32,000 nt of DNA from Nonlabens ponticola (GCF_003966335.1 NZ_CP034549.1:1350001-1382000), one strand, 5' to 3'. Counted from the first letter of the stretch, positions 8,371 to 32,000 are shown. The notes: generated by a model not told the origin, from the letters alone. Made by a program: numbers and translations.

Positions 8371-10287
8371 TTATTTTACTTTGGTAATGGTAAAGTTTGC
8401 TGCACCTATGGAACGTATAACGACTGGCTCAGTACTTGTGGTTTCTCCTGAAACTAATATGGAAACATCATCGCCAGCCTGAAGCTCAACAGTTTCATTG
8501 ATTATTATAGTACTCGCATCATGTGACTCTTGACGTCGTATGTAGCTATTTGAAGATGTTGCCCCAGTAATAATATCAACGCCACCTCTAGTGACCTCAA
8601 TTTCTGCGTCAATATTTGTTCTATTGGTACCAGAGGTACGAATAATTGGAATATTTACCTTAATCTCATAACGTCCGTCTTCACCTATGATAAGGTCATT
8701 ACCATTGGCAGACAATTCCACAGGTGCAAAGAGCGCATTATCATCATTCCATACCTGAAAACCAAATAGAGGCACCTCGTCGGCAGGATTGACATTTAGG
8801 TTGATTGTATTATTATTGCTTGTAAATCTTGCAGATCTGCTTTCGGGAGTTTGAGGCACCCAACGTGTGCCATTCCAGTAATAAAAGCCAGGCCGCACAT
8901 CATTATTATAACCAGCAGGTGTGAAATTAGTTGCTGTATTGAATACCAATAATCCAGTCGCTGGATTTGCTATTGGGCCTTGTTGAGACGCGTCAGTCAA
9001 AGCAACTCGATTTATCAACAAGCCCTGATTTGTTGATCCCATATCTATCGCCGCACTTGCATTAGGTGTGGCATTGTCGATGCCTACAGATCCTGTCGCT
9101 TTAATATTAATGTTGTCTACAACTGTTAATGCAGTGTTACCATCGTTTTCAATACCAATACTGAGTAATGCATTCTCAGGACTAGTACCAACATTATTAT
9201 TGTCATCAAATTGTATGTAGGCATAATCACTGCCTTTGTTTTCGGCACTAGGAAAGATTATGGACGATGAACCGCCTGCATCATTGTGTTCTATTATTAG
9301 TGAGCCTTGAGTTGGACTGGACTCAGTACCTACTTCCTCAACTATATGCAATTTACCTGCTGGGTCAGTAGTTCCTATACCAATATCACTGTTAGAATTT
9401 ATGGCAAAAGTATCATTGTCATCGATTTTAAAATCGATGCTATTATTTGTAGCAAAGATGAACGGTGCATTGAGATCAGTAGGATCTGCAGGAATGATGT
9501 TCAAGTTGCGGTTTGCACTATTTTCAATTCTCAACAAATTGTCATTAGTTTGAATTGTACGATCACCTGTTAGTGTCCCATTCGTATTATAAATATTACC
9601 AGAGTATGCGCCTGTGTCTTGACGTACTACATCACCATTTGCATCAACGCCCAAAATGCCTGTGGCTGTTCCATTAAGGGTCGCATCAGCATATTCTGGT
9701 AGTGTAATGCTACCATTCTCATTAAGTTCCAGAGTGGATTCTACCAGACTAGGGTCAGGATTGTTGCCTTGTGTGGCAAAAACCAATTTACCTTGCGTAG
9801 CTGTATTCAAATAAATAGCAGCATCATAACTATTACCGCTATTGCGAAAGGCTATACCTAGAGAATCCGCGTTGCTGGTGCGTCTTAAAGTCAAGGCATT
9901 TTCTCCTAATGAGCTGTTGATTTGCAATCTATTATTAGCGGCGTTAATTTCTCTATCACCGCTTAAGTTTCCATCCGTATTGTAAACAGAGGTATCCTCA
10001 TCTGCCTCAGCCAGTCGTTCCCAGGTGTTGCCATCCCAAAAATAAAAACCTTCACCAGTTGTAGTATTAGTATTATAAACCATGGTACCAACTGGAGTGC
10101 CGGTAGGTAAAGGTGTTACCGTGCCTAGATTTGCTATACTCGCCTTAGTGATAAGCAATCCTTCTGTACCATCACCTTCTAGGTGCAGCAGCGTACCATC
10201 TGCTGGGGTAGCCGTACCTATACCGACCTGTGCCTGTACAGTAATTGTTAATACAAATAAAAATAAACAGAGTAACCTTAAAATCAT
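8371..10287 (-). CDS. secreted repetitive surface protein, tail-fibre-like with a C-terminal C1q/BclA-like jelly-roll (function unknown)
   Basis: The ORF is open to 10317 (TTG). ATG at 10287 gives the signal peptide MILRLLCLFLFVLTITVQAQ. Modules are duplicated: VGIGTATP/IGIGTTDP/GSVGIDNATP, YNTDGNLSGDREI/YNTNGTLTGDRTI, and GFYFWDGNTW/GFYYWNGTRW. The last ~140 aa have a beta-sandwich-like pattern (GRYEIKVNI then LQAGDDVSILV). Confidence 0.6.
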   Translation of the reverse strand: MILRLLCLFLFVLTITVQAQVGIGTATPADGTLLHLEGDGTEGLLITKASIANLGTVTPLPTGTPVGTMVYNTNTTTGEGFYFWDGNTWERLAEADEDTSVYNTDGNLSGDREINAANNRLQINSSLGENALTLRRTSNADSLGIAFRNSGNSYDAAIYLNTATQGKLVFATQGNNPDPSLVESTLELNENGSITLPEYADATLNGTATGILGVDANGDVVRQDTGAYSGNIYNTNGTLTGDRTIQTNDNLLRIENSANRNLNIIPADPTDLNAPFIFATNNSIDFKIDDNDTFAINSNSDIGIGTTDPAGKLHIVEEVGTESSPTQGSLIIEHNDAGGSSSIIFPSAENKGSDYAYIQFDDNNNVGTSPENALLSIGIENDGNTALTVVDNINIKATGSVGIDNATPNASAAIDMGSTNQGLLINRVALTDASQQGPIANPATGLLVFNTATNFTPAGYNNDVRPGFYYWNGTRWVPQTPESRSARFTSNNNTINLNVNPADEVPLFGFQVWNDDNALFAPVELSANGNDLIIGEDGRYEIKVNIPIIRTSGTNRTNIDAEIEVTRGGVDIITGATSSNSYIRRQESHDASTIIINETVELQAGDDVSILVSGETTSTEPVVIRSIGAANFTITKVK

Positions 10288-10532
10288 AATTTGATCGACT
10301 TTTTTAATTCGGCGCAAAGATAAACTGCGTATTTTCAGCGATATAGCGGTTTTATGCTAATTGATCGTTAAGCTTATGACCTTTAAATCTTAATATTTTA
10401 TCTATTGTTAACTCAAAGCCGATAATTTTTCTGTTAATCGATACATTTAACATTTGGTAATTTAGAGAGTTACGTATAAATAATCGTTTGAAGTGACAAT
10501 AGTTATTATATTGGCTTTTCAAATTAATCTAG

Positions 10533-18170: not shown

Positions 18171-19259
18171 ATGACATTGACACCAGAACAAATACGCGAG
18201 GCACTGACCCAGCCTGAAATGGCCGCACACCTAGCAGATCTGGTGTACATTCAAGATGAGCACCTGAGCATTCATCGCAAGAAACACGGTCGTGGTTTCA
18301 CCTATCTTATCAACAATACAGAGAGAGTTAAGGATAAAGAAGAACTCAAGCGTATCAAGTCGCTGGTAATACCGCCAGCGTGGCAAGATGTGCGTATCTC
18401 CAGTGTGGCAAACGGTCACTTGCAATCTGTAGGTCGTGATGACAAAGGCCGCAAGGTGTATAGATATCATGATTTGTGGAGTCTTCTAAGAAACCAGACA
18501 AAGTTTTTTAAGATGTCCGCTTTCGCGAAAGCGTTACCCAAAATAAGAAAGCGATTAGAAAGTGACCTAGCATTAAAAGGAATGCCTCGTGAAAAGTGTC
18601 TAGCGCTGGTAGTGACTGTTATGGATCTAACACACATACGTGTTGGCAATCAATATTATGCGCGCAAAAACAAAACTTATGGACTCTCTACCCTACGCAC
18701 TAAGCATGTAGAAGATGATGGTGACGGCGTGACCTTTAATTTTAAGGGTAAAAAGGGCGTGCAGCAATCACACACCATTACTGATGAAGAAATCGTAGAG
18801 CTAATACACCAGTGCGAGGAAATTCCGGGTTGGGAATTGTTTCAATATATCGATAAAGATGGATCGCATCATGGTATCGATAGCGGTATGATCAATGATT
18901 ATATTCATGAGGTTGCTGGTGATATTTTTAGCGCCAAGGATTTTAGAACTTGGGGCGCGACCACTACTTTTTTTGAGAAGATGCTGGAATTGCCAGTGCC
19001 AGAAACAAAGAAACAACGCGATAAAAATATGCTAGAAGGATATGATGCTGCTGCAGAAGAATTAGGAAACACACGCAATGTGTGTCGTCAATATTATGTG
19101 CATCCTGAGATTCCCAATGTGTACGAAGAGGAAGATAAATTTGAGCAGTACCGTAAAAAGGTAAAAGATTATAACGACTACAAACGCTTCACGGCAGCCG
19201 AGCGTTGCGTGCAGGAAATCATTGAGAACTTTGAGATCGAGTTCAAGCTGGAAGATTAA
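18171..19259 (+). CDS. bacterial type IB DNA topoisomerase (poxvirus-like)
   Basis: 362 aa. IPPAWQDVRIS, GRDDKGRKVYRYH, IRVGNQYYARKNKTYGLSTLR, KDFRTWGAT and the C-terminal VCRQYYVHP (catalytic Tyr context). Confidence 0.85.
   Translation: MTLTPEQIREALTQPEMAAHLADLVYIQDEHLSIHRKKHGRGFTYLINNTERVKDKEELKRIKSLVIPPAWQDVRISSVANGHLQSVGRDDKGRKVYRYHDLWSLLRNQTKFFKMSAFAKALPKIRKRLESDLALKGMPREKCLALVVTVMDLTHIRVGNQYYARKNKTYGLSTLRTKHVEDDGDGVTFNFKGKKGVQQSHTITDEEIVELIHQCEEIPGWELFQYIDKDGSHHGIDSGMINDYIHEVAGDIFSAKDFRTWGATTTFFEKMLELPVPETKKQRDKNMLEGYDAAAEELGNTRNVCRQYYVHPEIPNVYEEEDKFEQYRKKVKDYNDYKRFTAAERCVQEIIENFEIEFKLED
18518..18533. repeat. iterated palindrome copy 9 (exact 16-mer)
   Basis: Inside the topoisomerase IB CDS. 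Reads SAFAKAL. Confidence 0.95.
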
Positions 19260-21701
19260 TTACCAACTATAAATCAACACTTCATTACCATCAACGGTCG
19301 CAATAAAGCGGCTGTTTAAACCACCTATTGTTGTCATTGCCTTACCGTAAACGGGTAAAAAAGGTACCATTTCACCTTTACTGTCAAAAATGTATACTTT
19401 GTTCTCACCAGTGTCGACCGTGTAAATAAAGTCTTTACCATTTATTGATTGGATTCTTGCTGGCGTGTAAGTACCGTATGGTAATTCAATGGAATTGTCG
19501 TTGATCTGCAGCTCGTTTTTTGACTGGCGAACTTGAGTGCGACTGGACATTTCAATGTAGTCGTCATTATTCAAGACTGTTTTAGTTGTGGTGATTTTAC
19601 CAGTGGTTGGGTTGATTTTGATCAATTCTCTGTTCTTGTTCAAGGTTTGAATCAAATTGTCCTTGAAGTATAATTCGCTTGTATTATCAATGGTTTGACC
19701 AATTTCTGTTCTTACATCTCCAGTCCTACTCAATAACTTCAATTTATTAGAGCTGGTGGTAAAGGCAATGTAATCTTTGGAACCTTTTCTAAAATGCTGT
19801 GGTGATTCTGCAATCTCGCCGTCACTTGTGTATTTAAAGCCGTTGACTTTATTACCGCTACTGTTATACATGATTAATTCATCATCTAGGGTAAGTAGAA
19901 TGCGGTAATTTTTATTGTTGTCATAGTCAAATAGACTCAACGGTTGTGTGATGTCATTACGGGTTTTTATCGGGAAACCATCCACATCATTGCCATTGCG
20001 ATCTAATAGATATACTTGATTTTGTGTATTAAATAATAATTGACGACGTCCATTTTTATAAGTATCTACAGATTGAATGTCACCCATGATCTGGTTGTCC
20101 AGCTGTTTACTCCAGTAGGCCGTACCGTCAGGTGCGATAAGGGTAAGATTATATTCTACATCTTGAATAGCGATATCATAACTACCGTTGGTATGATTGG
20201 GAAATATAAATGGTCCAGCTACAATATCATTTGATGATTTGTAGGTTCCTACTTGAGCAACAAGCGGCGCGAGTTGTTGCTGATTGTTAATAGGAACAAC
20301 CATGCGATAAGTTGCGAACTGGTTTTCATGAACATATTGATGAATGATTGCGGGAAAATCCTGCGCCTCAATTTTATCTAAAAGTTCGCGATCGTTCTTA
20401 CTCAAGTTTTCTTCTGTGTCCTTATAAAATTGAGTGCTTATTACTTCAAGCAAGGAGCTGCTGGTTGCGAGCTCCTTTGATTGCTCTTGCCACCATGCTA
20501 GGCTAGATAGGGTAGAGCCATTCTGGTAATTGGCAATGATAAATTCCAGCGTTTCCACACTAGCTGTCCATACCATAAATTCATCGAGAACGATGACATG
20601 TTTATAGCTCCTATTGTCAATGAGTGGTAGCAGATTATTTGTTTTCCATGGCTCGCTCATCGTATAGATGACTTGATCGCGATAGGTGGTTTTGTCACTG
20701 CTCAAACTATCCAGATTGAGGAAAAGTTCCTCGTAGGGTTTTAAGTGCATCGCTATTGCGTTGCCCTTTTCTAATTCTAATTGCATGAGCTCATTGCTGT
20801 TTTCAAGAATAGCCGTTGTACGACCATCTTTCCCAGCAGCCTTGTTGTGGTAGGTCTTTAAATTAGTAATCAACTCTGCCTTGTCACCGTAGGTAATAGA
20901 CCTGGCTTTGATAAAAGACACTGGTAGCAATTGAGCTACCTTATTCTCTTGTGCTTCTAGATTATTGTAAAGCGATTGCTTTTGTTTGATACTGTCCTTG
21001 TAGATCACAAGACCGTCAAGTTGCATCTTTGAATCGGTAGCATCTACTTCAGTTTGATACCAGTTTTTACTGTTGTTAGTTAGTTCAACAGTCTGATTAG
21101 TCATGAAATCCCAAAACCAAGATTTATTCTGCGATCTTATATAAAAGGATAGATCGTTACCATGAGTGCGATCGTATAAATCTTTGAACATACCGTCAAA
21201 AACAAAATCTCCTAGATTTCTTCTCAGGATACTTTCCATCACGATTTGTGAGGAACTAGTAATAGTCAGTCCATCTTTTATGGCTTGATAGTATGTATTG
21301 TCGTCAACCTCGCGGACATTAATTTTAATGTCATTGTACGTAATGGTTTTGGTAGTGGATAAGCTGTCAGGTACCTGTGATTTTTCAGCATAAGTAATCA
21401 TGGTGATTACGGGCTGGTTCTTGCCTTCCATGCTCAAGGCTATGAGCGCTTCATCTTTTACAGGTGTGTTGAATAGAAATGAACCAACCGTTGCTAGATC
21501 TTGAAACCTGTCCAACTGATTCACAGCATTGATGATAGGGTTATTTGATAAAAACTCATTGAGTTGTGCCATGTCTGTTAGCGAGACTACGGCGATGGAT
21601 TCAGATGGTAAGTAAGCGACTAGATCATCGCTAACGCTGTCTTCATCCTTGCAAGAATTGAAGATCACTAGCAAAACCAATAAATACCATACTCTTTTCA
21701 T
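19260..21701 (-). CDS. large hypothetical lipoprotein with C-terminal beta-propeller-like repeats
   Basis: 813 aa. Lipobox LVIFNSC followed by KDEDS, an acidic patch like a lipoprotein export signal. The C-terminal third repeats motifs such as NGNDVDGFPI, SGNKVNGFKY and SKGEMVPFLPVYG. I recognise no family. Confidence 0.55.
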   Translation of the reverse strand: MKRVWYLLVLLVIFNSCKDEDSVSDDLVAYLPSESIAVVSLTDMAQLNEFLSNNPIINAVNQLDRFQDLATVGSFLFNTPVKDEALIALSMEGKNQPVITMITYAEKSQVPDSLSTTKTITYNDIKINVREVDDNTYYQAIKDGLTITSSSQIVMESILRRNLGDFVFDGMFKDLYDRTHGNDLSFYIRSQNKSWFWDFMTNQTVELTNNSKNWYQTEVDATDSKMQLDGLVIYKDSIKQKQSLYNNLEAQENKVAQLLPVSFIKARSITYGDKAELITNLKTYHNKAAGKDGRTTAILENSNELMQLELEKGNAIAMHLKPYEELFLNLDSLSSDKTTYRDQVIYTMSEPWKTNNLLPLIDNRSYKHVIVLDEFMVWTASVETLEFIIANYQNGSTLSSLAWWQEQSKELATSSSLLEVISTQFYKDTEENLSKNDRELLDKIEAQDFPAIIHQYVHENQFATYRMVVPINNQQQLAPLVAQVGTYKSSNDIVAGPFIFPNHTNGSYDIAIQDVEYNLTLIAPDGTAYWSKQLDNQIMGDIQSVDTYKNGRRQLLFNTQNQVYLLDRNGNDVDGFPIKTRNDITQPLSLFDYDNNKNYRILLTLDDELIMYNSSGNKVNGFKYTSDGEIAESPQHFRKGSKDYIAFTTSSNKLKLLSRTGDVRTEIGQTIDNTSELYFKDNLIQTLNKNRELIKINPTTGKITTTKTVLNNDDYIEMSSRTQVRQSKNELQINDNSIELPYGTYTPARIQSINGKDFIYTVDTGENKVYIFDSKGEMVPFLPVYGKAMTTIGGLNSRFIATVDGNEVLIYSW

Positions 21702-24467: not shown

Positions 24468-24492
24468 ATCGGTGATCAACCGATTATTTTTT
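24468..24492 (+). terminator. weak possible terminator after the porin-like gene
   Basis: ATCGGT-GATCA-ACCGAT followed by TATTTTTT. The stem is only 6 bp. Confidence 0.35.
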
Positions 24493-24543: not shown

Positions 24544-24565
24544 AGGGTTGACAAATGTTAACCCT
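24544..24565. promoter_or_regulatory. candidate operator: 22-bp imperfect palindrome AGGGTTGACA-AA-TGTTAACCCT
   Basis: The half-sites match at 9 of 10 positions. It lies about 85 nt upstream of the first gene of the poly-Asp lipoprotein/receptor cluster. Confidence 0.3.
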
Positions 24566-24648
24566 TGCAAATCTGTTAGTGTTTTATTAGCAACTGCAAT
24601 GACTTATCGCACGTAGTTTTACTCAAAGAAAAATAATTTATTTACACT

Positions 24649-25728
24649 ATGAAAATTAACAAATTAACAATTGCCTTATTGGCAACCGCAGTAATCGGCT
24701 TTACCTCATGTGACGATGATGATGACCTAGAGGAAGGAAGATTTGACAGAGCAGAATTATATGTAACAAGTGTCGCAAATGGTGATGTGACTGTTTATGA
24801 TTTTGAAGATCGTGATGATGTTGATGTTACTACATTGACCAACAATTCAGACTCAAATGAAGGTATCATTTATGATGCAAGTAGAAACGAGCTTTTTGTA
24901 GCATCAAGAAGTAATCAAACTTTAAGTGCATATACAGGAATCGAGGATTTAATCGACGGTGGTGTATCAGGCGTTTCAGGAGTAGAGTCAGATGACGATC
25001 TAGAAAGCCCACGTGCCATTGCACGCAATGGTAGATTTATCGTTGTAGCAGATAACGATGGTGATGGCGATAATAGCGATGATTTAAGTGATGATGACGA
25101 CGATAATGATGATGACGATGGTAATGAATTGTTTGTTTATGAAAGAACATCAAATGGTCTTGAATTAAGAGATCGTTTTGAAGTAGATTTTGCTCTATGG
25201 GGTATTGAATTTATAGGTGATGATCTTTATGCAGTAGTTGACCAGACTAATCAAATTGCTGTATTTGAAGACTTTCTAAACAACACTGAGGATGATGACG
25301 ACGATGACGACGATGATCTTGATGCAGACAAAGTGGTGTCGATTGAAAACCTTACAAGAACTCACGGTATCGCATATGATAACACTGATGACGTGATGAT
25401 ATTGACTGATATAGGTGCAGCTAGTAGTGATAACGATGGTGGTCTTATCTTGATCCAAAACTTTCAAGATATATTTGACGCAACACCAGAAGGTGGAACG
25501 ATCGCAACAGGCGCCCAAACAAGAGTGTATGGATCAAACACATTCTTGGGTAACCCAATTGATGTAGATTATGATACTGAAACAAACTCAGTATTAGTCG
25601 CAGAGGTTGCCAACGGTGGTGGTCGTGTATTAGGATTTAATAATATTGGTAACGGTGGTAACATTGCTCCAACTATTAATAATCTCTTGCCAGGTGCAAG
25701 TTCAGTAGACTTCTACCTAGAAGACTAA
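24649..25728 (+). CDS. acidic lipoprotein, probable 6-bladed beta-propeller with poly-Asp loop inserts
   Basis: 359 aa. Lipobox GFTSC followed by DDDDD. Six strand motifs recur: ELYVTSVANGDVTVYD, NELFVASRSNQTLSAY, RFIVVADNDG, DDLYAVVDQTNQIAVFE, DVMILTDIG and NSVLVAEVANGGGRVLGF. Asp-rich inserts lie at 25051-25125 and 25291-25317. Confidence 0.6.
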   Translation: MKINKLTIALLATAVIGFTSCDDDDDLEEGRFDRAELYVTSVANGDVTVYDFEDRDDVDVTTLTNNSDSNEGIIYDASRNELFVASRSNQTLSAYTGIEDLIDGGVSGVSGVESDDDLESPRAIARNGRFIVVADNDGDGDNSDDLSDDDDDNDDDDGNELFVYERTSNGLELRDRFEVDFALWGIEFIGDDLYAVVDQTNQIAVFEDFLNNTEDDDDDDDDDLDADKVVSIENLTRTHGIAYDNTDDVMILTDIGAASSDNDGGLILIQNFQDIFDATPEGGTIATGAQTRVYGSNTFLGNPIDVDYDTETNSVLVAEVANGGGRVLGFNNIGNGGNIAPTINNLLPGASSVDFYLED

Positions 25729-25747
25729 TTAGAATTTTAAAATTTAA

Positions 25748-25778
25748 GAAAGCCAACTCACTAGAGTTGGCTTTTTTT
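25748..25778 (+). terminator. intrinsic terminator after the propeller lipoprotein gene
   Basis: AGCCAACTC-ACTA-GAGTTGGCT followed by TTTTTT. Confidence 0.8.
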
Positions 25779-25812
25779 GTTGGTAATAATTTTACATTTT
25801 ATATATTTGAAC

Positions 25813-26103
25813 GTGTCTATCATCAAAAAATACGCTTCATTAGTATTACTGCTGCTCTTTCTAGGAGTGCAGGCAACTTCTTTGCACGGTTTTTCTCATG
25901 AGGATGATGACACTTCATGTGAGCTATGTCTTGTAGTTCAAAATTTTCAGGAAGAAGAGTTTACGGGTCAAGATGCGATTATAATAGCACCACCAGTAAT
26001 GATTCTTGTAAGTGTTGAGGTTGGTGATCATTACGCTTTCGCGAAAGCGGAATCCCAACCAACTTTCTACCCATCACGGCCACCGCCGTTTACCCATAGT
26101 TAG
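25813..26103 (+). CDS. small membrane/secreted protein with HxxSHEDDDxxCxxC motif
   Basis: The track ORF starts at TTG 25777, inside the upstream terminator's T-tract. In-frame GTG at 25813 gives (M)SIIKKYASLVLLLLFLGVQATS, then LHGFSHEDDDTSCELC. The start is uncertain. It contains an iterated-palindrome copy, read YAFAKA. Confidence 0.45.
   Translation: MSIIKKYASLVLLLLFLGVQATSLHGFSHEDDDTSCELCLVVQNFQEEEFTGQDAIIIAPPVMILVSVEVGDHYAFAKAESQPTFYPSRPPPFTHS
26034..26049. repeat. iterated palindrome copy 11 (exact 16-mer, left flank TTA)
   Basis: Inside the small His/Cys protein ORF. Reads YAFAKA. Confidence 0.95.
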
Positions 26104-26153
26104 AATAACACGATCGCATCGGGCGATTGTACTACCTATGAAGTAAATACCCT

Positions 26154-28610
26154 ATGTTTTTAAAAAATATCGTGGTAATTGTCCTTTTATCGGCAATTAC
26201 CGCAACGGCTCAGGACTGTCGCATACAGTTAAAAGGTGTCGTTACTGATTTTCATGACGCAGCGCCACTAGAACTCGCTCAAGTTTACATTAAGGAAGCA
26301 GGAAAAACCGGCACCACTAATGAACTAGGTGAGTACCAGATCAAGAACCTGTGTGCAGGTGATTACACGGTTGTAGTGACCCATTTTTCTTGTGAGACAA
26401 AGACGTTGAATCTTAGTTTGAGACGTGATATGACTTATAACGTCAAGCTAGAACATCATATCAATGACTTAGAGCAAGTAGATATTCTAGCAGATGTTCA
26501 CGATAATCATGACCAGACGCAGTCTAGTACACGTGTAGATCAGGAGACCATTAATAAATATAGTGGTGCAACATTAGGCGACGCGCTCGCGACTGTGCAA
26601 GGTGTATCAGCGCTCAAGACAGGCAATAGTGTGGTAAAGCCAGTTATTCATGGTGTTTACGGTAGTAGAGTAACTATAGTAAATAATGGTTTAAGGCAAC
26701 AGGATCAGGAATGGGGTCTAGAGCATTCACCTAATATTGATGTGAACACCGCAGCAAATATTGAAGTTGTAAAAGGTGCAACGGCCTTGAGGTATGGTGG
26801 CGATGCCATTGGTGGAACGATTATTATTGAACCAGAGCGTTTCCTGGCTATGGACACCTTGAAAGGCAAACTCATAAGCCAACTGCAATCAAATGGTCGT
26901 GGTGGTAGCCTCACAGGAACTATTGGGAACTATAATAATAGTGGCTGGTACCAGCGTGTAACATTGACCGGTAAGCGATTGGGTGATTATGAAGCACCAG
27001 ATTATGTCTTGAGTAATACAGGTGAGCAAACCTTCTCAGGTAACCTCGCGGTAGGGTACCAGCAATTTGAGTACGGTGGTAGCATCAATTACTCCTATTA
27101 TAATACAGAGTTGGGAATCCTGCGTGCATCGCATATAGGTAATAGTACCAACCTTGTAAGATCTATAAACTCTGGTCAGCCTAATATTGTACGGGATTTC
27201 ACCTATGATATCGATCCACCTAAACAGCAGGTAGAACATCATGGATTACAGCTTAAAGGCTTCAAGCGTTTTGCAAATCTGGGAAAACTCGAGGTAGATT
27301 ATGCGTTTCAATTTAACAATAGGCTAGAATTTGACATACGTCGTGGTGCTAACGCTGGTCGTGCATCGCTGGATCTTGACTTGACGACACACACGCTGGC
27401 GGCATACTTACTGGTAGATTCGTTAGAAGATATAGAGTTGGAACTAGGTGTGGACGGTTTGCATCAAATCAACGAGCCTAATCCAGCTACTGGCATACGT
27501 CGATTGATACCAGATTATGATAGCCAGAAGATAGGTGGTTTTATCAGTGCCAATAAAAGATTCCATTCTAAGTGGCTTGTAGATGCTGGTGTGAGATATG
27601 ATTTATATCGTATCGCTGCACAAAAGTTTTATCAGTTATCGCGCTGGGAAGACTTGGGCTATGACGAGCAATTCCCACAATTCGAGGTGCGAGAAACAAG
27701 TACTCAGATATTGACAAATCCTGAGTTTGATTACAGCCTACTGGCTTTCAGTGCAGGTGTCAAATACTTTGTGGATGACCATTATGACTTTGCGATTAAT
27801 TTGAGTAGTGCCAGTCGAGCGCCTAATCCTAGTGAACTCTTCAGTGATGGGTTGCACCACGCACTGGCGACTATAGAATTGGGCCAGCTCGATTTAAGAA
27901 AAGAACGATCGTATAAGCTGAACTTGACGGCCCATGCTGGTAAAGGTGGTTTTAACGCCGTTGATATCGAGGTCAACCCTTATTTAAGTTTAGTAAAAGA
28001 CTACATACAATTAGTACCGATTGGGTTGGAAACGACTACAAGAGGTGCATTTCCAGTGTATCAATATGAGCAGGTAGATGCTTTGCTAGCTGGTGTCGAT
28101 GTAGGTGCCTCATGGGACATCGTTTATACTGAGCTTGTGGATCCTGAAGATCCAGATGGTAACCCAGAGCTTTTTGAATCCTTGAGACTCAACTCAAGAT
28201 TTTCTTACATCTATGGCGAGAATACAACAGACGATGAACCGCTCATACTCATACCGCCTACACAATTTTACAATGAATTGGTCTGGAGCAATGGAATTAT
28301 CGATAATCTAAGTTTTACACTGGCTAATCAATCAGTACTTACACAGACTCGATTTCCTGATGATGATTACGAAGTCAATATACCGGATGATCAGGGAAAT
28401 TTTCAAACGGTTACTGTGGAAATAAGTGAAGCACCTAGTGGTTTTTCCTTGTGGAATGCTGGTGTCAGTTACGCTTTCGCGAAAGCGCAATTAAACCTGC
28501 GCGTAAACAACTTATTGAATACCAATTATAGAAACTATCTCAACAGGCAACGCTTTTATGCAGATGACATAGGGCGTGATTTTCAATTACAATTCATCTA
28601 TAACTTTTAA
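26154..28610 (+). CDS. TonB-dependent outer-membrane receptor with N-terminal carboxypeptidase-regulatory-like domain
   Basis: 818 aa with a signal peptide. CarbopepD_reg-like segment: LKGVVTDFHDAAPLELAQVYIKE then GEYQIKNLCAGDY. Plug motifs: ATLGDALATVQGV, VIHGVYGSRV and IEVVKGATALRYGGDAIGGTI. The barrel ends with FQLQFIYNF. Confidence 0.9.
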   Translation: MFLKNIVVIVLLSAITATAQDCRIQLKGVVTDFHDAAPLELAQVYIKEAGKTGTTNELGEYQIKNLCAGDYTVVVTHFSCETKTLNLSLRRDMTYNVKLEHHINDLEQVDILADVHDNHDQTQSSTRVDQETINKYSGATLGDALATVQGVSALKTGNSVVKPVIHGVYGSRVTIVNNGLRQQDQEWGLEHSPNIDVNTAANIEVVKGATALRYGGDAIGGTIIIEPERFLAMDTLKGKLISQLQSNGRGGSLTGTIGNYNNSGWYQRVTLTGKRLGDYEAPDYVLSNTGEQTFSGNLAVGYQQFEYGGSINYSYYNTELGILRASHIGNSTNLVRSINSGQPNIVRDFTYDIDPPKQQVEHHGLQLKGFKRFANLGKLEVDYAFQFNNRLEFDIRRGANAGRASLDLDLTTHTLAAYLLVDSLEDIELELGVDGLHQINEPNPATGIRRLIPDYDSQKIGGFISANKRFHSKWLVDAGVRYDLYRIAAQKFYQLSRWEDLGYDEQFPQFEVRETSTQILTNPEFDYSLLAFSAGVKYFVDDHYDFAINLSSASRAPNPSELFSDGLHHALATIELGQLDLRKERSYKLNLTAHAGKGGFNAVDIEVNPYLSLVKDYIQLVPIGLETTTRGAFPVYQYEQVDALLAGVDVGASWDIVYTELVDPEDPDGNPELFESLRLNSRFSYIYGENTTDDEPLILIPPTQFYNELVWSNGIIDNLSFTLANQSVLTQTRFPDDDYEVNIPDDQGNFQTVTVEISEAPSGFSLWNAGVSYAFAKAQLNLRVNNLLNTNYRNYLNRQRFYADDIGRDFQLQFIYNF
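28472..28487. repeat. iterated palindrome copy 12 (exact 16-mer, left flank TTA)
   Basis: Inside the C-terminal barrel strands of the TonB-dependent receptor. Reads YAFAKA. Confidence 0.95.
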
Positions 28611-28666
28611 ACTCTCGAGCTATGAGAAACAACAATTTTAATTTTAACCCAGTAAACTTTACAACT

Positions 28667-29254
28667 ATGAAAAAGCCAATTTTTAGATATGCACTAGCTG
28701 CATTACTAGTAACATCATTTGTTGCATGTGACGACGATGACGACTCACCAGAAGAGATCAACCCAGAAGAATTAATCACTACGGTTGAGTACACACTAAC
28801 CAAAACTGACGACGATGACGATGATGATGACAACGACGATGATGTGATTGTTTTAAAAGCGGTAGATAATGATGGTGATGGCCCTGATGCACCAGTGATT
28901 ACCGTTAGCGATAATCTTGATACAAATTCTACCTATTCAGGAAACATAAGATTCTTAAATGAGAGCGATCCCGGTGATGTTGAGAATATAACAGAAGAGG
29001 TACAGGATGAATCAAATGATCATGAGGTGTTTTATGCATCACCGATCAGCGGTTTGCAGATCACAAAAGATGATACAGACAATAATGGTAATCCACTCGG
29101 TTTGAGAACAACTGTAACTACAGGTGCAGCTGGTACGGGCAACTTGACTGTAACACTGCTTCATGAACCTAATAAGCCTAATAATGGTACGGTATCAAAT
29201 GCAGGCGGTGAGCCGGATGCAGAGGTAGTGTTCCCTATCACTATAGAGGACTAG
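28667..29254 (+). CDS. acidic lipoprotein partner of the TonB-dependent receptor (family not recognised)
   Basis: The ORF is open from 28622. ATG at 28667 gives MKKPIFRYALAALLVTSFVAC followed by DDDDD. A second tract, DDDDDDDDNDDD, lies at 28808-28843. The EELITTVEYTL, DNDGDG, FLNE, HEVFY and LLHEPNKP pattern recurs next to such receptors, as far as I recall. Confidence 0.6.
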   Translation: MKKPIFRYALAALLVTSFVACDDDDDSPEEINPEELITTVEYTLTKTDDDDDDDDNDDDVIVLKAVDNDGDGPDAPVITVSDNLDTNSTYSGNIRFLNESDPGDVENITEEVQDESNDHEVFYASPISGLQITKDDTDNNGNPLGLRTTVTTGAAGTGNLTVTLLHEPNKPNNGTVSNAGGEPDAEVVFPITIED

Positions 29255-29280
29255 TTATACTTTAGGGGTATAATGAATGG

Positions 29281-29312
29281 CCGTCTGGACTGCAGAATCC
29301 AGGCGGTTTTTT
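29281..29312 (+). terminator. intrinsic terminator after the receptor-lipoprotein operon
   Basis: CCGTCTGGA-CTGCAGAA-TCCAGGCGG (one G-T pair) followed by TTTTTT. Confidence 0.8.
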
Positions 29313-29891: not shown

Positions 29892-31442
29892 TCAATAATT
29901 CTGCGGATTCTCAATCACGTCTTGTGCGCGTTTTTTATGTGCCTTTAATTTATCGCTATCCATTTTCTTGAGATTTGACATGATCATGTTCATACGTTGG
30001 TTGTTCTCAAAATGAGATTTTTTCTCGTCTAGGAAATTCCAATACAGCGAATTGAAAGGACACGCGCCGTCCTCGCCACCTTTTTTGCTCACGCTATACT
30101 CGCAGTTCTTGCAGTAGTTGCTCATTTTATTGATGTAGCTACCGCTAGATACATAGGGCTTGGTAGCGATGATACCGCCGTCTGCAAATTGAGACATGCC
30201 GCGCACGTTGGTAATCTCTACCCATTCTACAGCATCGATATAAACACCTAGATACCACTCGTCTACATAACTAGGTTCCGTCATCGTTAGTAGTGCATAA
30301 TTTCCTGTGATCATTAATCGCTGTATGTGGTGCGCATAGGCATTATCCAGTGAATTATTGATCGACTCGCTCAGGCATTTCATTTTGGTCTCGCCAGTCC
30401 AATAGAAATCTGGCAAGTCGTTCTTGTTATCCAGCTCGTTTTTAGATTGATAATCTGGCATTTCCTTCCAGTAGATACCACGCATGAATTCACGCCAGCC
30501 TAGAATTTGTCTTACAAAACCTTCAACCTGTGAGATCTCTATATCCTTACTATCACGATAAGCCTCGATGACTTTCTCAATCACTTCTTTTGGGCTTAGA
30601 AGCTTGCTGTTCATGGTAAAACTTAAACGTGAGTGGTACAGATATTCTTCCTCAGTATGCATGGCATCTTGATAGTCGCCAAAATGCACCAGCAAATTCT
30701 CACAGAAATAATTGAGTACATCAAGCGCGTCGCTGCGCGTTACTGGCCAGTTGAAATTCTTTTCGTCAATACGGCCAAAAGTCTTCACACCTTCATCTTC
30801 TAGCAACTTTACAATGTCACTCACATCCTTCCGGAACCCTTTCTCATGAGGGATTTCTGTATCATGTTCCCACTTTTGCCTGTTGCTCTTGTCATAGTTC
30901 CAGTCGCCACCTTCAGGTTCTTTGTCGCCTTCTATAAGTATATCGTGCTTCTTGCGCATATCACGGTAGAAATATTCCATCGTCATGCGCTTCTTGCCTT
31001 CAAAAAATTTCTCTACGTCTTTCCTTTTGGTATAAAAATGCTCTGTATCATAGCCTTCCCATTCTATATCGAGCGAGTCGCATATATCCTTGAGCTGTTT
31101 GTCCAGTCGCCACTCATCGGGAGCGAGGTATTCAAACTTTTCTATATCATGTTCTTTGATCAAGTTCTTAATGTTTTTCTCAAGATCTTGCTCATTGTCC
31201 TTATGGTCTAGCTCATAATAAACGGTTTCCCAGCCACGGTCATTCATCCATTCATTGAAACCACGCATGGCAAGAAAAAACGCACAAACCTTTTGAATAT
31301 GGTGCTTGACATAGTCCGTTTCCTGGCGCATCTCTGCCATGTGGTAAATAATGTGCTCTTGATCGCCATTAAACCAGCTGTGTTTGTGGTTGAGTTGATC
31401 ACCCAGTATAAATCGCAGTGTTTTTGGTTTGCTATCGCTCAT
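29892..31442 (-). CDS. cryptochrome/photolyase family protein of the FeS-BCP / (6-4) photolyase (PhrB/CryB, COG3046) type
   Basis: 516 aa. N-terminus KTLRFILGDQL, central GWREFMRGIYW, HIQRLMITGN, and a C-terminal Cys set (YCKNCEY then GACPFNSLYWNFL) consistent with an Fe-S cluster. Confidence 0.8.
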   Translation of the reverse strand: MSDSKPKTLRFILGDQLNHKHSWFNGDQEHIIYHMAEMRQETDYVKHHIQKVCAFFLAMRGFNEWMNDRGWETVYYELDHKDNEQDLEKNIKNLIKEHDIEKFEYLAPDEWRLDKQLKDICDSLDIEWEGYDTEHFYTKRKDVEKFFEGKKRMTMEYFYRDMRKKHDILIEGDKEPEGGDWNYDKSNRQKWEHDTEIPHEKGFRKDVSDIVKLLEDEGVKTFGRIDEKNFNWPVTRSDALDVLNYFCENLLVHFGDYQDAMHTEEEYLYHSRLSFTMNSKLLSPKEVIEKVIEAYRDSKDIEISQVEGFVRQILGWREFMRGIYWKEMPDYQSKNELDNKNDLPDFYWTGETKMKCLSESINNSLDNAYAHHIQRLMITGNYALLTMTEPSYVDEWYLGVYIDAVEWVEITNVRGMSQFADGGIIATKPYVSSGSYINKMSNYCKNCEYSVSKKGGEDGACPFNSLYWNFLDEKKSHFENNQRMNMIMSNLKKMDSDKLKAHKKRAQDVIENPQNY

Positions 31443-31644: not shown

Positions 31645-32000
31645 TTACTCACTTAACCACAAGTCACGATATTCATGGTCGCCATCATAGCGATCTGCCT
31701 GCGATTGAATGTTGAAGGTGCGATTTCTAGGATCGTTGCCCACGCCGCTGTTGTACATCCAGTTACCGTAGTTGCTGTGTACGTCATAGTCAATGAGAAT
31801 GTGTTCAAAATAGGCAGCGCCTATACGCCAATCCTGCTCGCGATGCATAGACCAATAGCTGGCTACATTTTGACGGCCACGGTTACTCATGAATCCAGTG
31901 GCGGCGATCTCCTTCATGTTTGCATTGACAAAATTCTCATGCGTCTCGCCTTGCATCCATTTCTTGAGTTCTTTATCGTTAGCCTTCCAATCATAATCTT
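31645..32000 (-). CDS. DASH-type cryptochrome, C-terminal part (gene continues beyond the window)
   Basis: The reading frame is open to the window edge: DYDWKANDKELKKW precedes the track's Met. MKEIAATGFMSNRGRQNVASYW and NYGNWMYNSGVGNDPR are photolyase/cry-DASH FAD-domain motifs. Confidence 0.8.
   Translation of the reverse strand, partial: DYDWKANDKELKKWMQGETHENFVNANMKEIAATGFMSNRGRQNVASYWSMHREQDWRIGAAYFEHILIDYDVHSNYGNWMYNSGVGNDPRNRTFNIQSQADRYDGDHEYRDLWLSE

Follow-up and report, generated by a model that had tools for sequence, protein, structure and literature searches.

A window of 32,000 nucleotides from Nonlabens ponticola, to which all coordinates below refer and on whose plus strand all features lie, contains a conserved unit of three genes: a small leader ORF, a TonB-dependent receptor gene and the gene for a 195-residue lipoprotein. 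The unit extends from 25813 to 29254 and is found in Flavobacteriaceae and in some other Bacteroidota. In our view, with a probability of roughly 0.6, this operon encodes a transition-metal uptake system that is regulated by translation arrest and comprises the leader, the receptor and a surface lipoprotein; copper and zinc appear about equally likely as the imported metal. The only arrest leaders for which copper sensing has been demonstrated are CruR and CutF, from two Proteobacteria, and their Bacteroidota counterparts are entries in bioinformatic surveys. The present locus is a concrete and very widespread Bacteroidota candidate for such a system, with an invariant His/Cys sensor motif, a fixed spacer and a putative RGPP, RPPP or RAPP stall site.

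The conservation of the unit is apparent from its neighborhoods. The receptor gene adjoins a homolog of the 195-residue lipoprotein gene in 82 of the 84 related loci that hold such a homolog, and in 74 of 79 assessable loci, the receptor/lipoprotein pair follows an intact small ORF with R(G/P/A)PP at its end. This locus type accounts for at least 561 matched stretches in a species-representative genome set. The intergenic region between the small ORF and the next gene has a median length of 42 nt across loci and measures 50 nt in the window. A Bacteroidota-type -7 box, TATATTTG (25802..25809), lies 3 nt upstream of the leader's GTG start codon and probably belongs to the promoter of the operon; in related loci, both from Nonlabens and of the Maribacter type, equivalent TAnnTTTG boxes precede the start by 3–5 nt. 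At the other end, the hairpin scan yielded an intrinsic-terminator-like hairpin with a T-run (29279..29308). By 6-mer enrichment and inspection, we also found, in 21 of 71 loci, a TTAAC(A)-containing element that precedes the start by 21–90 nt (mostly about 39–44 nt) and occasionally takes the form of a TTAAC-N5-GTTAA palindrome. We dropped it as a Zur/Fur box, as it is not general, is not clear in the window and could not be linked to a known regulator. Among the other neighbors considered for functional clues, those encoding GTP cyclohydrolase I, DUF2400, DUF5916, an ABC ATPase, a Mo-oxidoreductase and MsrA seem to reflect background synteny. DUF6146/DUF6787 genes lie upstream of the unit in about 37 loci, and TerC does so in one lineage; a literature search on DUF6146/DUF6787, on the NCBI name of the lipoprotein and on copper limitation in flavobacteria returned nothing useful.

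A sequence-only reading of this DNA had described a four-gene cluster, which in addition included a 359-residue lipoprotein gene (24649..25728) upstream of the leader; the start given for that cluster, 24544, is 105 nt upstream of this first gene. All four same-strand ORFs are present as described, and the leader, the receptor and the 195-residue lipoprotein are indeed conserved together, but the 359-residue lipoprotein does not belong to the unit. Its gene adjoins the unit in only 4 of the 84 related loci, all four from Nonlabens, and is solitary and in unrelated contexts in Dokdonia, Zobellia and Echinicola. Terminator-like hairpins lie on both sides of it, as well as after the 195-residue lipoprotein gene. 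The hairpin that sets it apart from the operon (25749..25780; GCCAACTC-ACTA-GAGTTGGC followed by a run of seven T) was read directly from the sequence, and the same stem was returned by the hairpin scan. We conclude that the 359-residue lipoprotein is a neighbor and a separate transcription unit. Its AlphaFold2 model (pLDDT 86.5) is a β-propeller of the six-bladed type, predicted to be surface-exposed. BtuG-like proteins are seven-bladed propellers that are encoded beside BtuB-type receptors and cap them. While BtuG is the top Foldseek match of the model (TM 0.49), generic six-bladed YWTD propellers fit better (up to 0.60). We therefore rejected a BtuG-like receptor-capping role, given the TM of 0.49 and the fact that in most genera the gene adjoins no receptor.

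In the four-gene reading, the poly-aspartate tracts of the two lipoproteins were taken for 'cation sponges' that capture metal at the surface and feed it to the receptor. The tracts are real: each of those named earlier was found in the translations, namely DDDDDNDDDD (25090-25119) and EDDDDDDDDD (25288-25317) in the propeller gene and DDDDDDDDNDDD (28808-28843) in the 195-residue lipoprotein gene. A six-frame search of the whole 32 kb places every stretch of at least four Asp in these two adjacent genes, and since GAT and GAC codons are mixed, the runs are not pure triplet repeats. Their placement as loop inserts agrees with the AlphaFold2 models, where they lie in loops of low to moderate confidence (pLDDT below 50 for propeller residues 140–155; a block mean near 70, without secondary structure, for residues ~48–59 of the 195-residue protein). 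Yet in all sampled relatives of both families, including those with about 60% identity, the long internal runs are absent or short while the module is kept, an absence without effect on the module, which the earlier reading had itself named as refuting its Asp-tract part. The long runs are thus low-complexity loop expansions specific to N. ponticola and dispensable for the module; they might add non-specific cation binding, but such conspicuous tracts should not be taken for a conserved functional feature.

The N-termini of these proteins are a different matter. Both carry a 21-residue signal with a terminal Cys, immediately followed by five aspartates (MKINKLTIALLATAVIGFTSC and MKKPIFRYALAALLVTSFVAC, each followed by DDDDD, in the 359- and the 195-residue protein, respectively). 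The acidic residues at positions +2 to +5 relative to the lipobox Cys fit the published export signals of Bacteroidota surface lipoproteins (SDDDD, SDDFE and K-(D/E)2), and a C-[SNTDE]-DDD-like motif is the commonest N-terminal pattern across both lipoprotein families, which supports the earlier prediction of surface exposure for both proteins. These export-signal-like N-termini and the long Asp runs shared by the two adjacent proteins remain the arguments for a four-gene capture system. Given the scattered occurrence and transcriptional isolation of the propeller gene, the species-specific nature of the runs and their location in low-confidence loops, we consider such a system very improbable and, by sequence comparison, largely refuted. 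As a whole, the earlier interpretation is partly supported.

The leader ORF (25813..26103) encodes 96 residues from a GTG start codon; the mechanically called ORF begins at a TTG at 25777. By inspection, residues 1–21 resemble a signal peptide, with two lysines, a hydrophobic stretch and a cleavage site between VQA and TS. Beyond it lies the putative sensor motif H25-x3-H29-x6-C36-x2-C39 (25885-25929), in which the Cys pair reads C36ELC39; the LHGFSHEDDDTSCELC stretch pointed out earlier is present. Near the C-terminus stands the candidate arrest motif R89-P90-P91-P92 (26077-26088), followed by just four residues, FTHS, before the stop codon. A homolog search with this protein returned the query only, and we therefore built its family from neighboring ORFs of related loci by iterated HMM searches. 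The resulting 69 distinct sequences have a mean column identity of just 21%, and only H25, C36, P91 and P92 are invariant, with R89 conserved in more than 90%. The His/Cys motif, which had drawn attention to this protein in the first place, is hence its sole conserved part besides the C-terminal arrest motif. An N-terminal hydrophobic segment, again judged by inspection, is common to the 69 relatives. The second Cys is more variable: CxxC is found in 41 of 70 relatives and a lone Cys followed by D/E in the other 29.

The C-terminal motif occurs as RGPP (37 sequences), RPPP (24), RAPP (8) and KPPP (1), and the distance from RxPP to the C-terminus is 2–6 residues in all but one protein, most often 3. 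Its Arg and Pro codons vary synonymously between loci. Furthermore, the motif stands at a nearly fixed distance from the sensor: the spacer from CxxC to Arg is 43–45 residues in RAPP and RGPP types and mostly 49–50 in RPPP types, and in proteins that lack the second Cys, the remaining one usually lies 47 residues upstream. In the window leader, the spacer is 49 residues long, compared with the published 45. Experiments have shown strong arrest by RAPP and RGPP, and small ORFs with these motifs are overrepresented upstream of genes for TonB-dependent receptors; the RPPP variant is not discussed in the arrest-peptide literature on RAPP and RGPP that we examined. The window leader has no match to the DUF2946 profile PF11162, even at E ≤ 10, but three of the 69 relatives have sub-threshold matches (18.9, 14.4 and 11.5 bits versus a gathering score of 23.7), all of them co-linear and reaching the end of the profile. 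Judged by its sequence and by analogy, the small ORF is most likely a CruR/CutF-like (DUF2946-like) regulatory leader that senses metal and stalls the ribosome, and probably not a structural metal-handling component of the system, as had been assumed. One survey found uORFs upstream of copper-related factor genes to be lacking in Bacteroidota, which weakens the assignment of copper by analogy. A ZAS anti-sigma motif was also considered for this protein and rejected, since the spacing is wrong and so is the topology, with the hydrophobic segment of the small protein coming first.

The region between the leader and the receptor gene is consistent with such a regulatory role. An RNA hairpin of about -15 kcal/mol (26089..26147), present in both the MFE and the centroid structure, begins directly 3' of the last Pro codon. 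Its 5' arm spans the last four codons and the stop codon of the leader, and its 3' arm stops 6 nt before the receptor ATG. For the window alone, the fold has a z-score of only -1.75. Its position recurs, however: in an unbiased window of ~120 nt, 34 of 65 loci (52%) have their top-ranked, i.e. most stable, local hairpin starting -1 to +7 nt past the last Pro codon, as opposed to 9.7% in shuffles and 7.4% among 299 same-strand junctions that served as controls (Fisher p = 1e-15). In about half of the loci, the hairpin is accordingly not the top-ranked local structure. We do not rely on two earlier positional designs, one of which suffered from fold-boundary bias and the other from confounding by long-range closing pairs; in the boundary-biased design, with folds starting from the last Pro codon, the next start codon mostly lies 5–16 nt beyond the end of the 3' arm. 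Alignment-based covariation gave nothing, because the intergenic hairpins are unalignable between genera. The hairpin is placed exactly where a stalled ribosome would melt the structure.

These features also bear on whether the small protein could instead act as a stable metal acceptor or chaperone, periplasmic or anchored in the inner membrane, that is fed by the receptor. Its N-terminal hydrophobic signal or anchor, its 2His-2Cys motif and its co-inheritance with the receptor would suit this role. Yet conservation is confined to a few His/Cys residues and RxPP, and the role explains neither why an arrest-type motif should keep a fixed distance to the sensor nor why a hairpin should start exactly after that motif. 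Moreover, CruR and CutF, the characterized relatives, function as nascent chains and can hardly be detected as proteins (PMC9426467; PMC9973294). We therefore regard a chaperone as quite improbable.

The receptor (26154..28610; 818 residues) consists of a CarbopepD_reg-like domain, a plug and a TonB barrel. Its closest solved sequences are the zinc receptor ZnuD (E = 7e-11) and the copper receptor OprC (E = 3e-9), in line with the metal link proposed earlier. Among 81 family members, an acidic-His pair in the apical loop of the plug (E/D190-H191) and H568 in the 'RAPNPSELFSDGLHH' box are invariant, and these positions align with D99-H100 and H499 of ZnuD; Glu340 of ZnuD falls outside the alignment. 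In the plug region aligned with OprC, a conserved CxxxM copper site was sought and not found, and the (D/E)-His pair stands there instead. Likewise, no His-rich cluster is visible in the translation of residues 226–330. All NCBIfam scores of the receptor fall far short of the curated cut-offs, including those of the ZnuD model NF038289 (80.3 bits versus 950) and the OprC/NosA model TIGR01778 (58.8 versus 472.45).

Its best partial matches are heme and hemoglobin receptor models, namely TonB-hemin and the hemoglobin/transferrin/lactoferrin family (TIGR01785, 124.7 versus 316.85 bits; TIGR01786, 121.5 versus 323.75 bits). The earlier statement that no heme marker is present thus holds insofar as all scores are sub-threshold, but needs to be qualified, as heme/hemoglobin and ZnuD receptor models are the nearest ones. 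This raises the question of whether the operon imports heme, another metal complex or a metallophore, with the lipoprotein as a hemophore-like binder comparable to HmuY of the HmuY/HmuR system. A His in the plug loop and a second one in an FRAP/NPNL-like box would also fit the heme-clamping arrangement of HasR-type receptors, and the two invariant histidines of the lipoprotein, H119 and H166, might serve such a binder. Apart from the low scores, however, the lipoprotein has neither a match to the HmuY Pfam family nor a fold match to solved proteins, the plug His is invariably preceded by an acidic residue, like the His of the ZnuD Asp-His pair, and the leader class has so far been tied to metal ions. 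On balance, we consider uptake of heme or of such complexes unlikely.

The 195-residue lipoprotein (28667..29254, starting with MKKPIF) is a β-sandwich in its AlphaFold2 model and a predicted surface partner of the receptor. It has no match in Pfam or NCBIfam and none when its profile is searched against the sequences of the PDB. In a Foldseek search against the PDB, no fold match exceeds a query-normalized TM of 0.33; the weak matches to YcnI and AmoB cupredoxin-like domains (TM ≤ 0.3) were dismissed as noise. The name given to it by NCBI, 'type 1 periplasmic binding fold', is not supported by the predicted fold. The family is large: clustering at 50% identity gives about 2,200 representatives, some of them with 2–4 tandem copies. 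It shares an invariant DxDGDGP motif as well as invariant E111, E115, H119, D138, N142, H166 and D184.

From these observations, we propose the following mechanism. The nascent chain of the leader would be exported via its signal peptide; it carries the putative 2His-2Cys sensor (H25, H29, C36 and C39) and, 49 residues further on and four residues before the stop codon, the RPPP motif. A ribosome stalled there, with Pro codons in its P and A sites, would cover the 5' arm of the hairpin at 26089-26147, and the receptor initiation region would therefore stay open. Without a stalled ribosome, the hairpin could form, ending 6 nt short of the receptor ATG, so that the initiation region would close once the stall is released. 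Binding of metal to the emerging sensor motif would shift the balance between stalling and release. By analogy with CruR, and given the presumed role in uptake, metal would relieve the stall and turn the operon off; in the alternative polarity, as in CutF, stalling would occur when metal is present. The receptor, with its ZnuD-like ligand positions, would then import a transition-metal cation, and the β-sandwich lipoprotein, with its two invariant His and several invariant acidic residues, may sit on it as a substrate-capturing partner, a role modeled on other Bacteroidota surface lipoproteins.

It is possible, if rather doubtful, that the flavobacterial leaders form a distinct, non-copper branch of arrest sensors (e.g. 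for zinc) and that the 195-residue protein founds a new family of receptor partners. In that case, a Cys2His2 site in the nascent chain might read the metal status upon leaving the ribosome or the translocon, a Shine-Dalgarno-independent initiation region might be gated by a hairpin abutting the RPPP/RGPP stall site, and the 195-residue family might consist of surface metal-binding or metallophore-binding receptor partners. If true, such a branch and partner family would define how marine Flavobacteriaceae scavenge trace metals. Under the arrest-regulated uptake system that we favor, the locus is of interest for two further reasons. Bacteroidota mostly do without Shine-Dalgarno-led initiation, so that how a stalled ribosome opens the next gene becomes a useful mechanistic question. 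Moreover, the operon pairs a ZnuD-like receptor with an uncharacterized surface-lipoprotein family, through which abundant marine heterotrophs may capture trace metals.

Of the known systems, CruR of Bordetella pertussis (Bp2923, DUF2946) resembles the window leader in its setting. It heads the operon of the TonB-dependent transporter BfrG and carries a CXXC motif, followed after 45 residues by RAPP three residues before its end, both of which are needed for copper control (PMC9426467). Likewise, the unit described here begins with a small ORF, exported by its sequence, that has a Cys-based metal motif and an Arg-x-Pro-Pro motif a few residues before the C-terminus, and its next gene encodes a TonB-dependent receptor of a metal clade. 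The fixed sensor-to-arrest spacing is shared as well, with 43–45 residues in the RAPP/RGPP flavobacterial subtypes. By contrast, the window leader has RPPP and a 49-residue spacer, the flavobacterial sensor adds invariant histidines, and PF11162 does not match the window protein. The intergenic region also differs: it spans 162 nt and involves Rho-dependent termination in the case of CruR, whereas the 50 nt in the window are almost filled by the hairpin. The third gene encodes a surface lipoprotein here and a PepSY_TM protein in the CruR operon, and the phylum Bacteroidota is absent from Table S1 of PMC9426467.

In its intergenic architecture, the unit resembles that of CutF, the leader of the cutFOG operon of Rhodobacter capsulatus (PMC9973294), where the initiation region of the downstream gene is masked by a short stem-loop that the stalled ribosome melts (PMC9973294; bioRxiv 2025.02.05.636593); here, too, a short intergenic stem-loop precedes the start of the downstream gene. 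In the CutF-like collection, Bacteroidota make up 19% of the raw entries, and TonB-like genes are common downstream neighbors (PMC9973294; bioRxiv 2025.02.05.636593). [quoted passage not shown]

The high-affinity zinc site of Neisseria meningitidis ZnuD (PDB 4RDR) is formed by Asp99, His100, Glu340 and His499 (PMC4557270). In the flavobacterial family, the acidic-His pair in the apical plug loop and the loop His in an RxPxxxEL(F/Y)xxGxH box align with D99, H100 and H499 and are invariant. The window receptor differs from ZnuD in that it shows no His/Asp-rich clusters in loop 3 and has both an additional N-terminal CarbopepD_reg domain and a lipoprotein partner. CruR-type leaders often precede OprC-type receptors, and the OprC/NosA copper transporters (PMC8610252) provide the second-closest solved sequence to our receptor; their sulfur-rich CxxxM-HxM site was not found in it (OprC chain 99–261 versus query 142–303). 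Lastly, while the partner lipoprotein is a small β-sandwich that matches none of SusD, BtuG and HmuY, the arrangement itself, a receptor gene adjoining the gene of a lipoprotein with an acidic signal after its lipidated Cys, is the one seen in SusCD, BtuB-BtuG and HmuR-HmuY.

The sequence-only reading had described a four-gene metal-capture cluster whose poly-Asp surface lipoproteins would act as a 'cation sponge'. Its sequence-level observations on this part of the Nonlabens ponticola (Flavobacteriaceae) chromosome are correct: the four plus-strand ORFs, the two lipoprotein signals and the internal Asp runs are all present. ORF calling and domain searches give a 359-aa propeller lipoprotein (24649–25728, +), a small ORF of 96 aa from a GTG start (25813–26103, +; likewise 96 aa in the NCBI record), an 818-aa TonB-dependent receptor with CarbopepD_reg, Plug and TonB barrel domains (26154–28610, +) and a predicted surface lipoprotein of 195 aa (28667–29254, +). 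Sequence reading and a hairpin scan place terminator-like hairpins on both sides of the propeller gene, at 24468–24484, after Porin_10, and at 25749–25780 (GCCAACTC-ACTA-GAGTTGGC followed by T7); the scan finds a third downstream of the 195-aa lipoprotein gene (29279–29308).

We compared this arrangement with 84 related loci, of which 80 were fetched from species-representative genomes with alignment A1 of 195-aa lipoprotein homologs (at least 561 matching stretches exist in such genomes) and four came from exact-protein look-ups. The receptor gene adjoins the 195-aa lipoprotein gene in 82 of the 84. Iterated HMM searches with clustering located a small ORF directly upstream of this pair in 71 loci, and a motif search found five more in loci that had appeared to be without one; an intact small ORF is present in 74 of 79 assessable loci, five loci cut at a contig end being left out. 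The propeller gene adjoins the module in four of the 84 loci, all from Nonlabens. Elsewhere in this genus, Porin_10 is followed directly by the small ORF, and the propeller gene stands alone amid unrelated genes in Dokdonia, Zobellia and Echinicola. Because of these locus counts, the solitary propeller genes and the terminator-like hairpins, we regard the small ORF, the receptor and the lipoprotein as the conserved unit and the propeller gene as a separate, lineage-specific neighbor; the proposed four-gene system thus does not hold. The propeller itself is confidently modeled by AlphaFold2. Its top Foldseek matches are the B12-binding surface lipoproteins BtuG1/2 (TM ~0.49), and generic propellers, among them six-bladed YWTD ones, match equally well or better (TM up to 0.60). 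Since it is unlinked to receptors in most genera, we exclude it from the system without assigning it a function.

Other genes are found around the module. Genes for a DUF6146 lipoprotein and a DUF6787 membrane protein abut the small ORF on the same strand in one related locus (L001, 6215–7159), where the DUF6787 stop codon lies 2 nt ahead of the small-ORF start, and in about 37 further loci from many genera; they may be co-transcribed with the module. In Nonlabens they are absent from this position, which is occupied by Porin_10. Downstream of the operon, on the opposite strand, the window encodes a photolyase-related protein of the DPRP family (29892–31442, −) and the FAD-binding part of a photolyase/cryptochrome (31645–31956, −), which form a cluster for light response or DNA repair that has no connection with this module. 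The window also holds a bacterial type IB topoisomerase with Topoisom_I and Top1B_N_bact domains (18171–19259, +), an enzyme type uncommon in bacteria, and two large ORFs without a Pfam match at E ≤ 1e-5 (19260–21701, −, 813 aa; 8371–10317, −, 648 aa).

The relatives of the small ORF are extremely divergent, with a mean column identity of 21% among 69 distinct sequences, in which H25, C36, P91 and P92 are the only invariant residues and R89 is retained in more than 90%. All begin with a hydrophobic signal (in the window, KK precedes a hydrophobic stretch that leads to VQA|TS), carry a His/Cys motif, which reads H25-x3-H29-x6-C36-x2-C39 in the window, and end in R(G/P/A)PP 2–6, most commonly 3, residues ahead of the stop; across the family, RGPP occurs 37 times, RPPP 24 times, RAPP eight times and KPPP once. 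The spacing is tightly constrained: the CxxC motif precedes the Arg by 43–45 residues in the RAPP/RGPP types and mostly by 49–50 in the RPPP types (49 in the window), and in relatives that lack the second Cys, the remaining one usually lies 47 residues upstream of the Arg. The Arg and Pro codons of RxPP vary synonymously between loci, so selection acts on the peptide.

The start codon of this leader ORF is often GTG or TTG, in the window as in many relatives. A Bacteroidota −7 promoter box (TAnnTTTG) lies 3–5 nt upstream of the start in the window (25802–25815) and in loci L005–L013 and L028–L053, and its proximity would imply a leaderless or nearly leaderless transcript. In 21 of 71 loci (e.g. 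L028, L030, L032, L037, L043, L053 and L080), an (A/G)TTA(A/G)G-N-TTT-ATTTAACA element recurs 21–90 nt, mostly ~39–44 nt, before the small-ORF start; in some cases (L009, L044) it takes the form of a TTAAC-N5-GTTAA palindrome. The element, which is not evident in the window, may bind a regulator or serve as a non-canonical −33 element.

The architecture of the small ORF is that of CruR (Bp2923, DUF2946) from Bordetella pertussis, an exported regulatory arrest peptide encoded first in the operon of the TonB-dependent transporter BfrG, whose control by copper requires both of its motifs (PMC9426467). When CruR arrests, its two Pro codons occupy the P and A sites. In Rhodobacter, the related CutF combines a signal peptide, a CxxxC motif and a proline-rich stall site, and its stalling melts a stem-loop that masks the ribosome-binding site of the next gene (PMC9973294; bioRxiv 2025.02.05.636593). 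The strongest arrest cores shown are RAPP and RGPP, the latter being the most avoided tetrapeptide in bacterial proteomes, and in Gram-negative phyla small ORFs with these cores are enriched ahead of genes for TonB-dependent receptors. Bacteroidota are absent from the CruR catalog based on Pfam profile PF11162; in a jackhmmer survey they account for 19% (raw) or 40% (normalized) of CutF-like proteins, whose commonest downstream neighbors include TonB-like genes and not all of which are copper-specific (PMC9973294; bioRxiv 2025.02.05.636593). The window protein has no match to PF11162 even at E ≤ 10. Three RAPP/RGPP-type relatives score 18.9, 14.4 and 11.5 bits, below the gathering score of 23.7, in co-linear, near-full-length matches that reach the last profile position and can be read as remote homology or tight convergence; SecM models are touched by one or two relatives. 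Judged by the Pfam profile, the small ORF falls outside the CruR/CutF class; judged by its architecture, it belongs there.

The leader would be coupled to the receptor through a hairpin at 26089–26147 (about −15 kcal/mol), which is present in both the MFE and the centroid structure of its 140-nt context (z = −1.75). The 5′ arm follows the last Pro codon without a gap, and 6 nt separate the end of the 3′ arm from the receptor ATG at 26154. Across loci, we energy-ranked individual local hairpins in a segment that runs from 45 nt before the last Pro codon to 30 nt inside the next gene. In 34 of 65 loci (52%), the top-ranked hairpin begins −1 to +7 nt from this codon, compared with 9.7% in shuffled sequences and 7.4% at 299 control junctions between other same-strand gene pairs of the same loci (Fisher p = 1e-15). 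The 3′ arms mostly end 5–16 nt ahead of the next start codon, in a biased design with folding set to begin at the last Pro codon. Alignment-based covariation was not obtainable for the hairpin. The 5′ arm would be covered by a ribosome halted on RxPP, as expected if stalling opens the receptor initiation region in the manner of CutF, SecM and similar systems; arrest, its metal dependence and its polarity are inferred. Three Saprospiraceae MAG loci (L050, L065 and L076) have the order small ORF, lipoprotein, receptor, and a gap of ~280–330 nt after their RGPP ORF, compared with the 23–77 nt typical of Flavobacteriaceae. This long gap suggests a different coupling mechanism, for instance a Rho-dependent one as in CruR.

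The receptor scores below threshold with all curated models, at 124.7 bits for TonB-hemin, 121.5 for hemoglobin/transferrin/lactoferrin, 80.3 for ZnuD and 58.8 for copper receptors; its closest solved sequences are the zinc receptor ZnuD (E = 7e-11) and the copper receptor OprC (E = 3e-9). The zinc ligands of ZnuD are Asp99 and His100 in the apical loop of the plug, Glu340, and His499 in loop 6 (PMC4557270). In HMMER alignments, E190-H191 of our receptor aligns with this Asp-His pair and H568, in 'RAPNPSELFSDGLHH', with the His of ZnuD 'GKH', which is His499 once a 14-residue chain offset is corrected. All of 81 family members carry Glu or Asp at position 190 and retain both H191 and H568. The sulfur-rich CxxxM-HxM site of OprC was not found in the receptor. 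A plug His and a loop His also clamp heme in heme receptors, so that heme is a possible ligand when judged by these positions alone. In the first part of the receptor (26154–26460; residues 22–102), the N-terminal CarbopepD_reg-like domain carries C22, C67, H77 and C80, each kept in 95% or more of the 81 members, and an equally conserved HH pair (H101-H102) lies in the linker to the plug; these residues could form a second, periplasm-facing metal site or disulfides.

For the 195-aa lipoprotein, AlphaFold2 predicts a β-sandwich with good confidence, with no meaningful match among solved structures (query-normalized TM ≤ 0.33) or in PDB sequences, Pfam or NCBIfam. The name that NCBI and UniRef give the product of 28667–29254, 'type 1 periplasmic binding fold superfamily protein', does not agree with the predicted β-sandwich and is supported by no profile; it looks like a propagated mis-annotation. 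The family comprises 2,173 representatives at 50% identity (E ≤ 1e-3), has no Pfam model and shows, in alignment A1, an invariant DxDGDGP motif resembling a Ca site along with E111, E115, H119, D138, N142, H166 (in RHEP) and D184. Six homologs of 339–804 aa (P0242–P0245, P0249 and P0327) carry the domain in 2–4 tandem copies. Given the gene pairing and other receptor–lipoprotein pairs in Bacteroidota, the lipoprotein is a candidate for the receptor's surface substrate-binding partner.

In both window lipoproteins, a 21-residue signal with a terminal Cys is followed by DDDDD. Both families conserve a short acidic stretch immediately behind the lipidated Cys, and it fits published Bacteroidota export signals (SDDDD, SDDFE, K-(D/E)2), so the prediction of surface lipoproteins stands. 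The three long internal Asp runs have mixed GAT/GAC codons, and runs of at least four Asp are confined, in all frames of the 32-kb window, to the two lipoprotein genes. In the AlphaFold2 models (each pLDDT 86.5), the tracts fall within loops modeled with low or moderate confidence, as anticipated for loop inserts. The DDDDDDDDNDDD insert lengthens a short loop by seven residues in the alignment and occurs in none of the sampled 195-aa homologs, including those 55–63% identical. Both propeller tracts lie in variable loops, one replacing or extending a DVDGD-type loop that is deleted in many Nonlabens; long Asp runs occur in none of the sampled propeller relatives, a few of which have short acidic patches at this place (DDNNDE, NDNDDND). 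A conserved cation sponge is thus not borne out, and what survives of the original proposal is the link to metal and the surface lipoproteins. In one relative (P0069), the usual acidic linker that follows the lipidated Cys is replaced by DDHDHDHDHE, and in its lineage (L088, 2809–7284) the leader ORF is directly preceded by a gene for a TerC-family membrane protein; together these hint at metal handling.

The substrate would be a transition-metal cation, most likely copper or zinc. The leader class is best known for copper, and its published clusters include His-only members linked to Ni and Co; a survey found uORFs upstream of copper-related factor genes to be lacking in Bacteroidota. Zinc would fit at least as well as copper, given the 2His-2Cys leader motif, its second Cys that is often Asp or Glu, the O/N-donor positions of the receptor and the His-Asp tail of one lipoprotein; none of the neighboring genes settles which metal it is. 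Overall, we consider it fairly probable (about 60%) that the operon is controlled by a CruR/CutF-like arrest peptide and encodes a ZnuD-like receptor with an uncharacterized surface lipoprotein. From the known class, this leader differs in its RPPP core, its spacer of 49–50 residues and its His-containing sensor, and the operon in the hairpin that abuts the stall site and in the lipoprotein partner.
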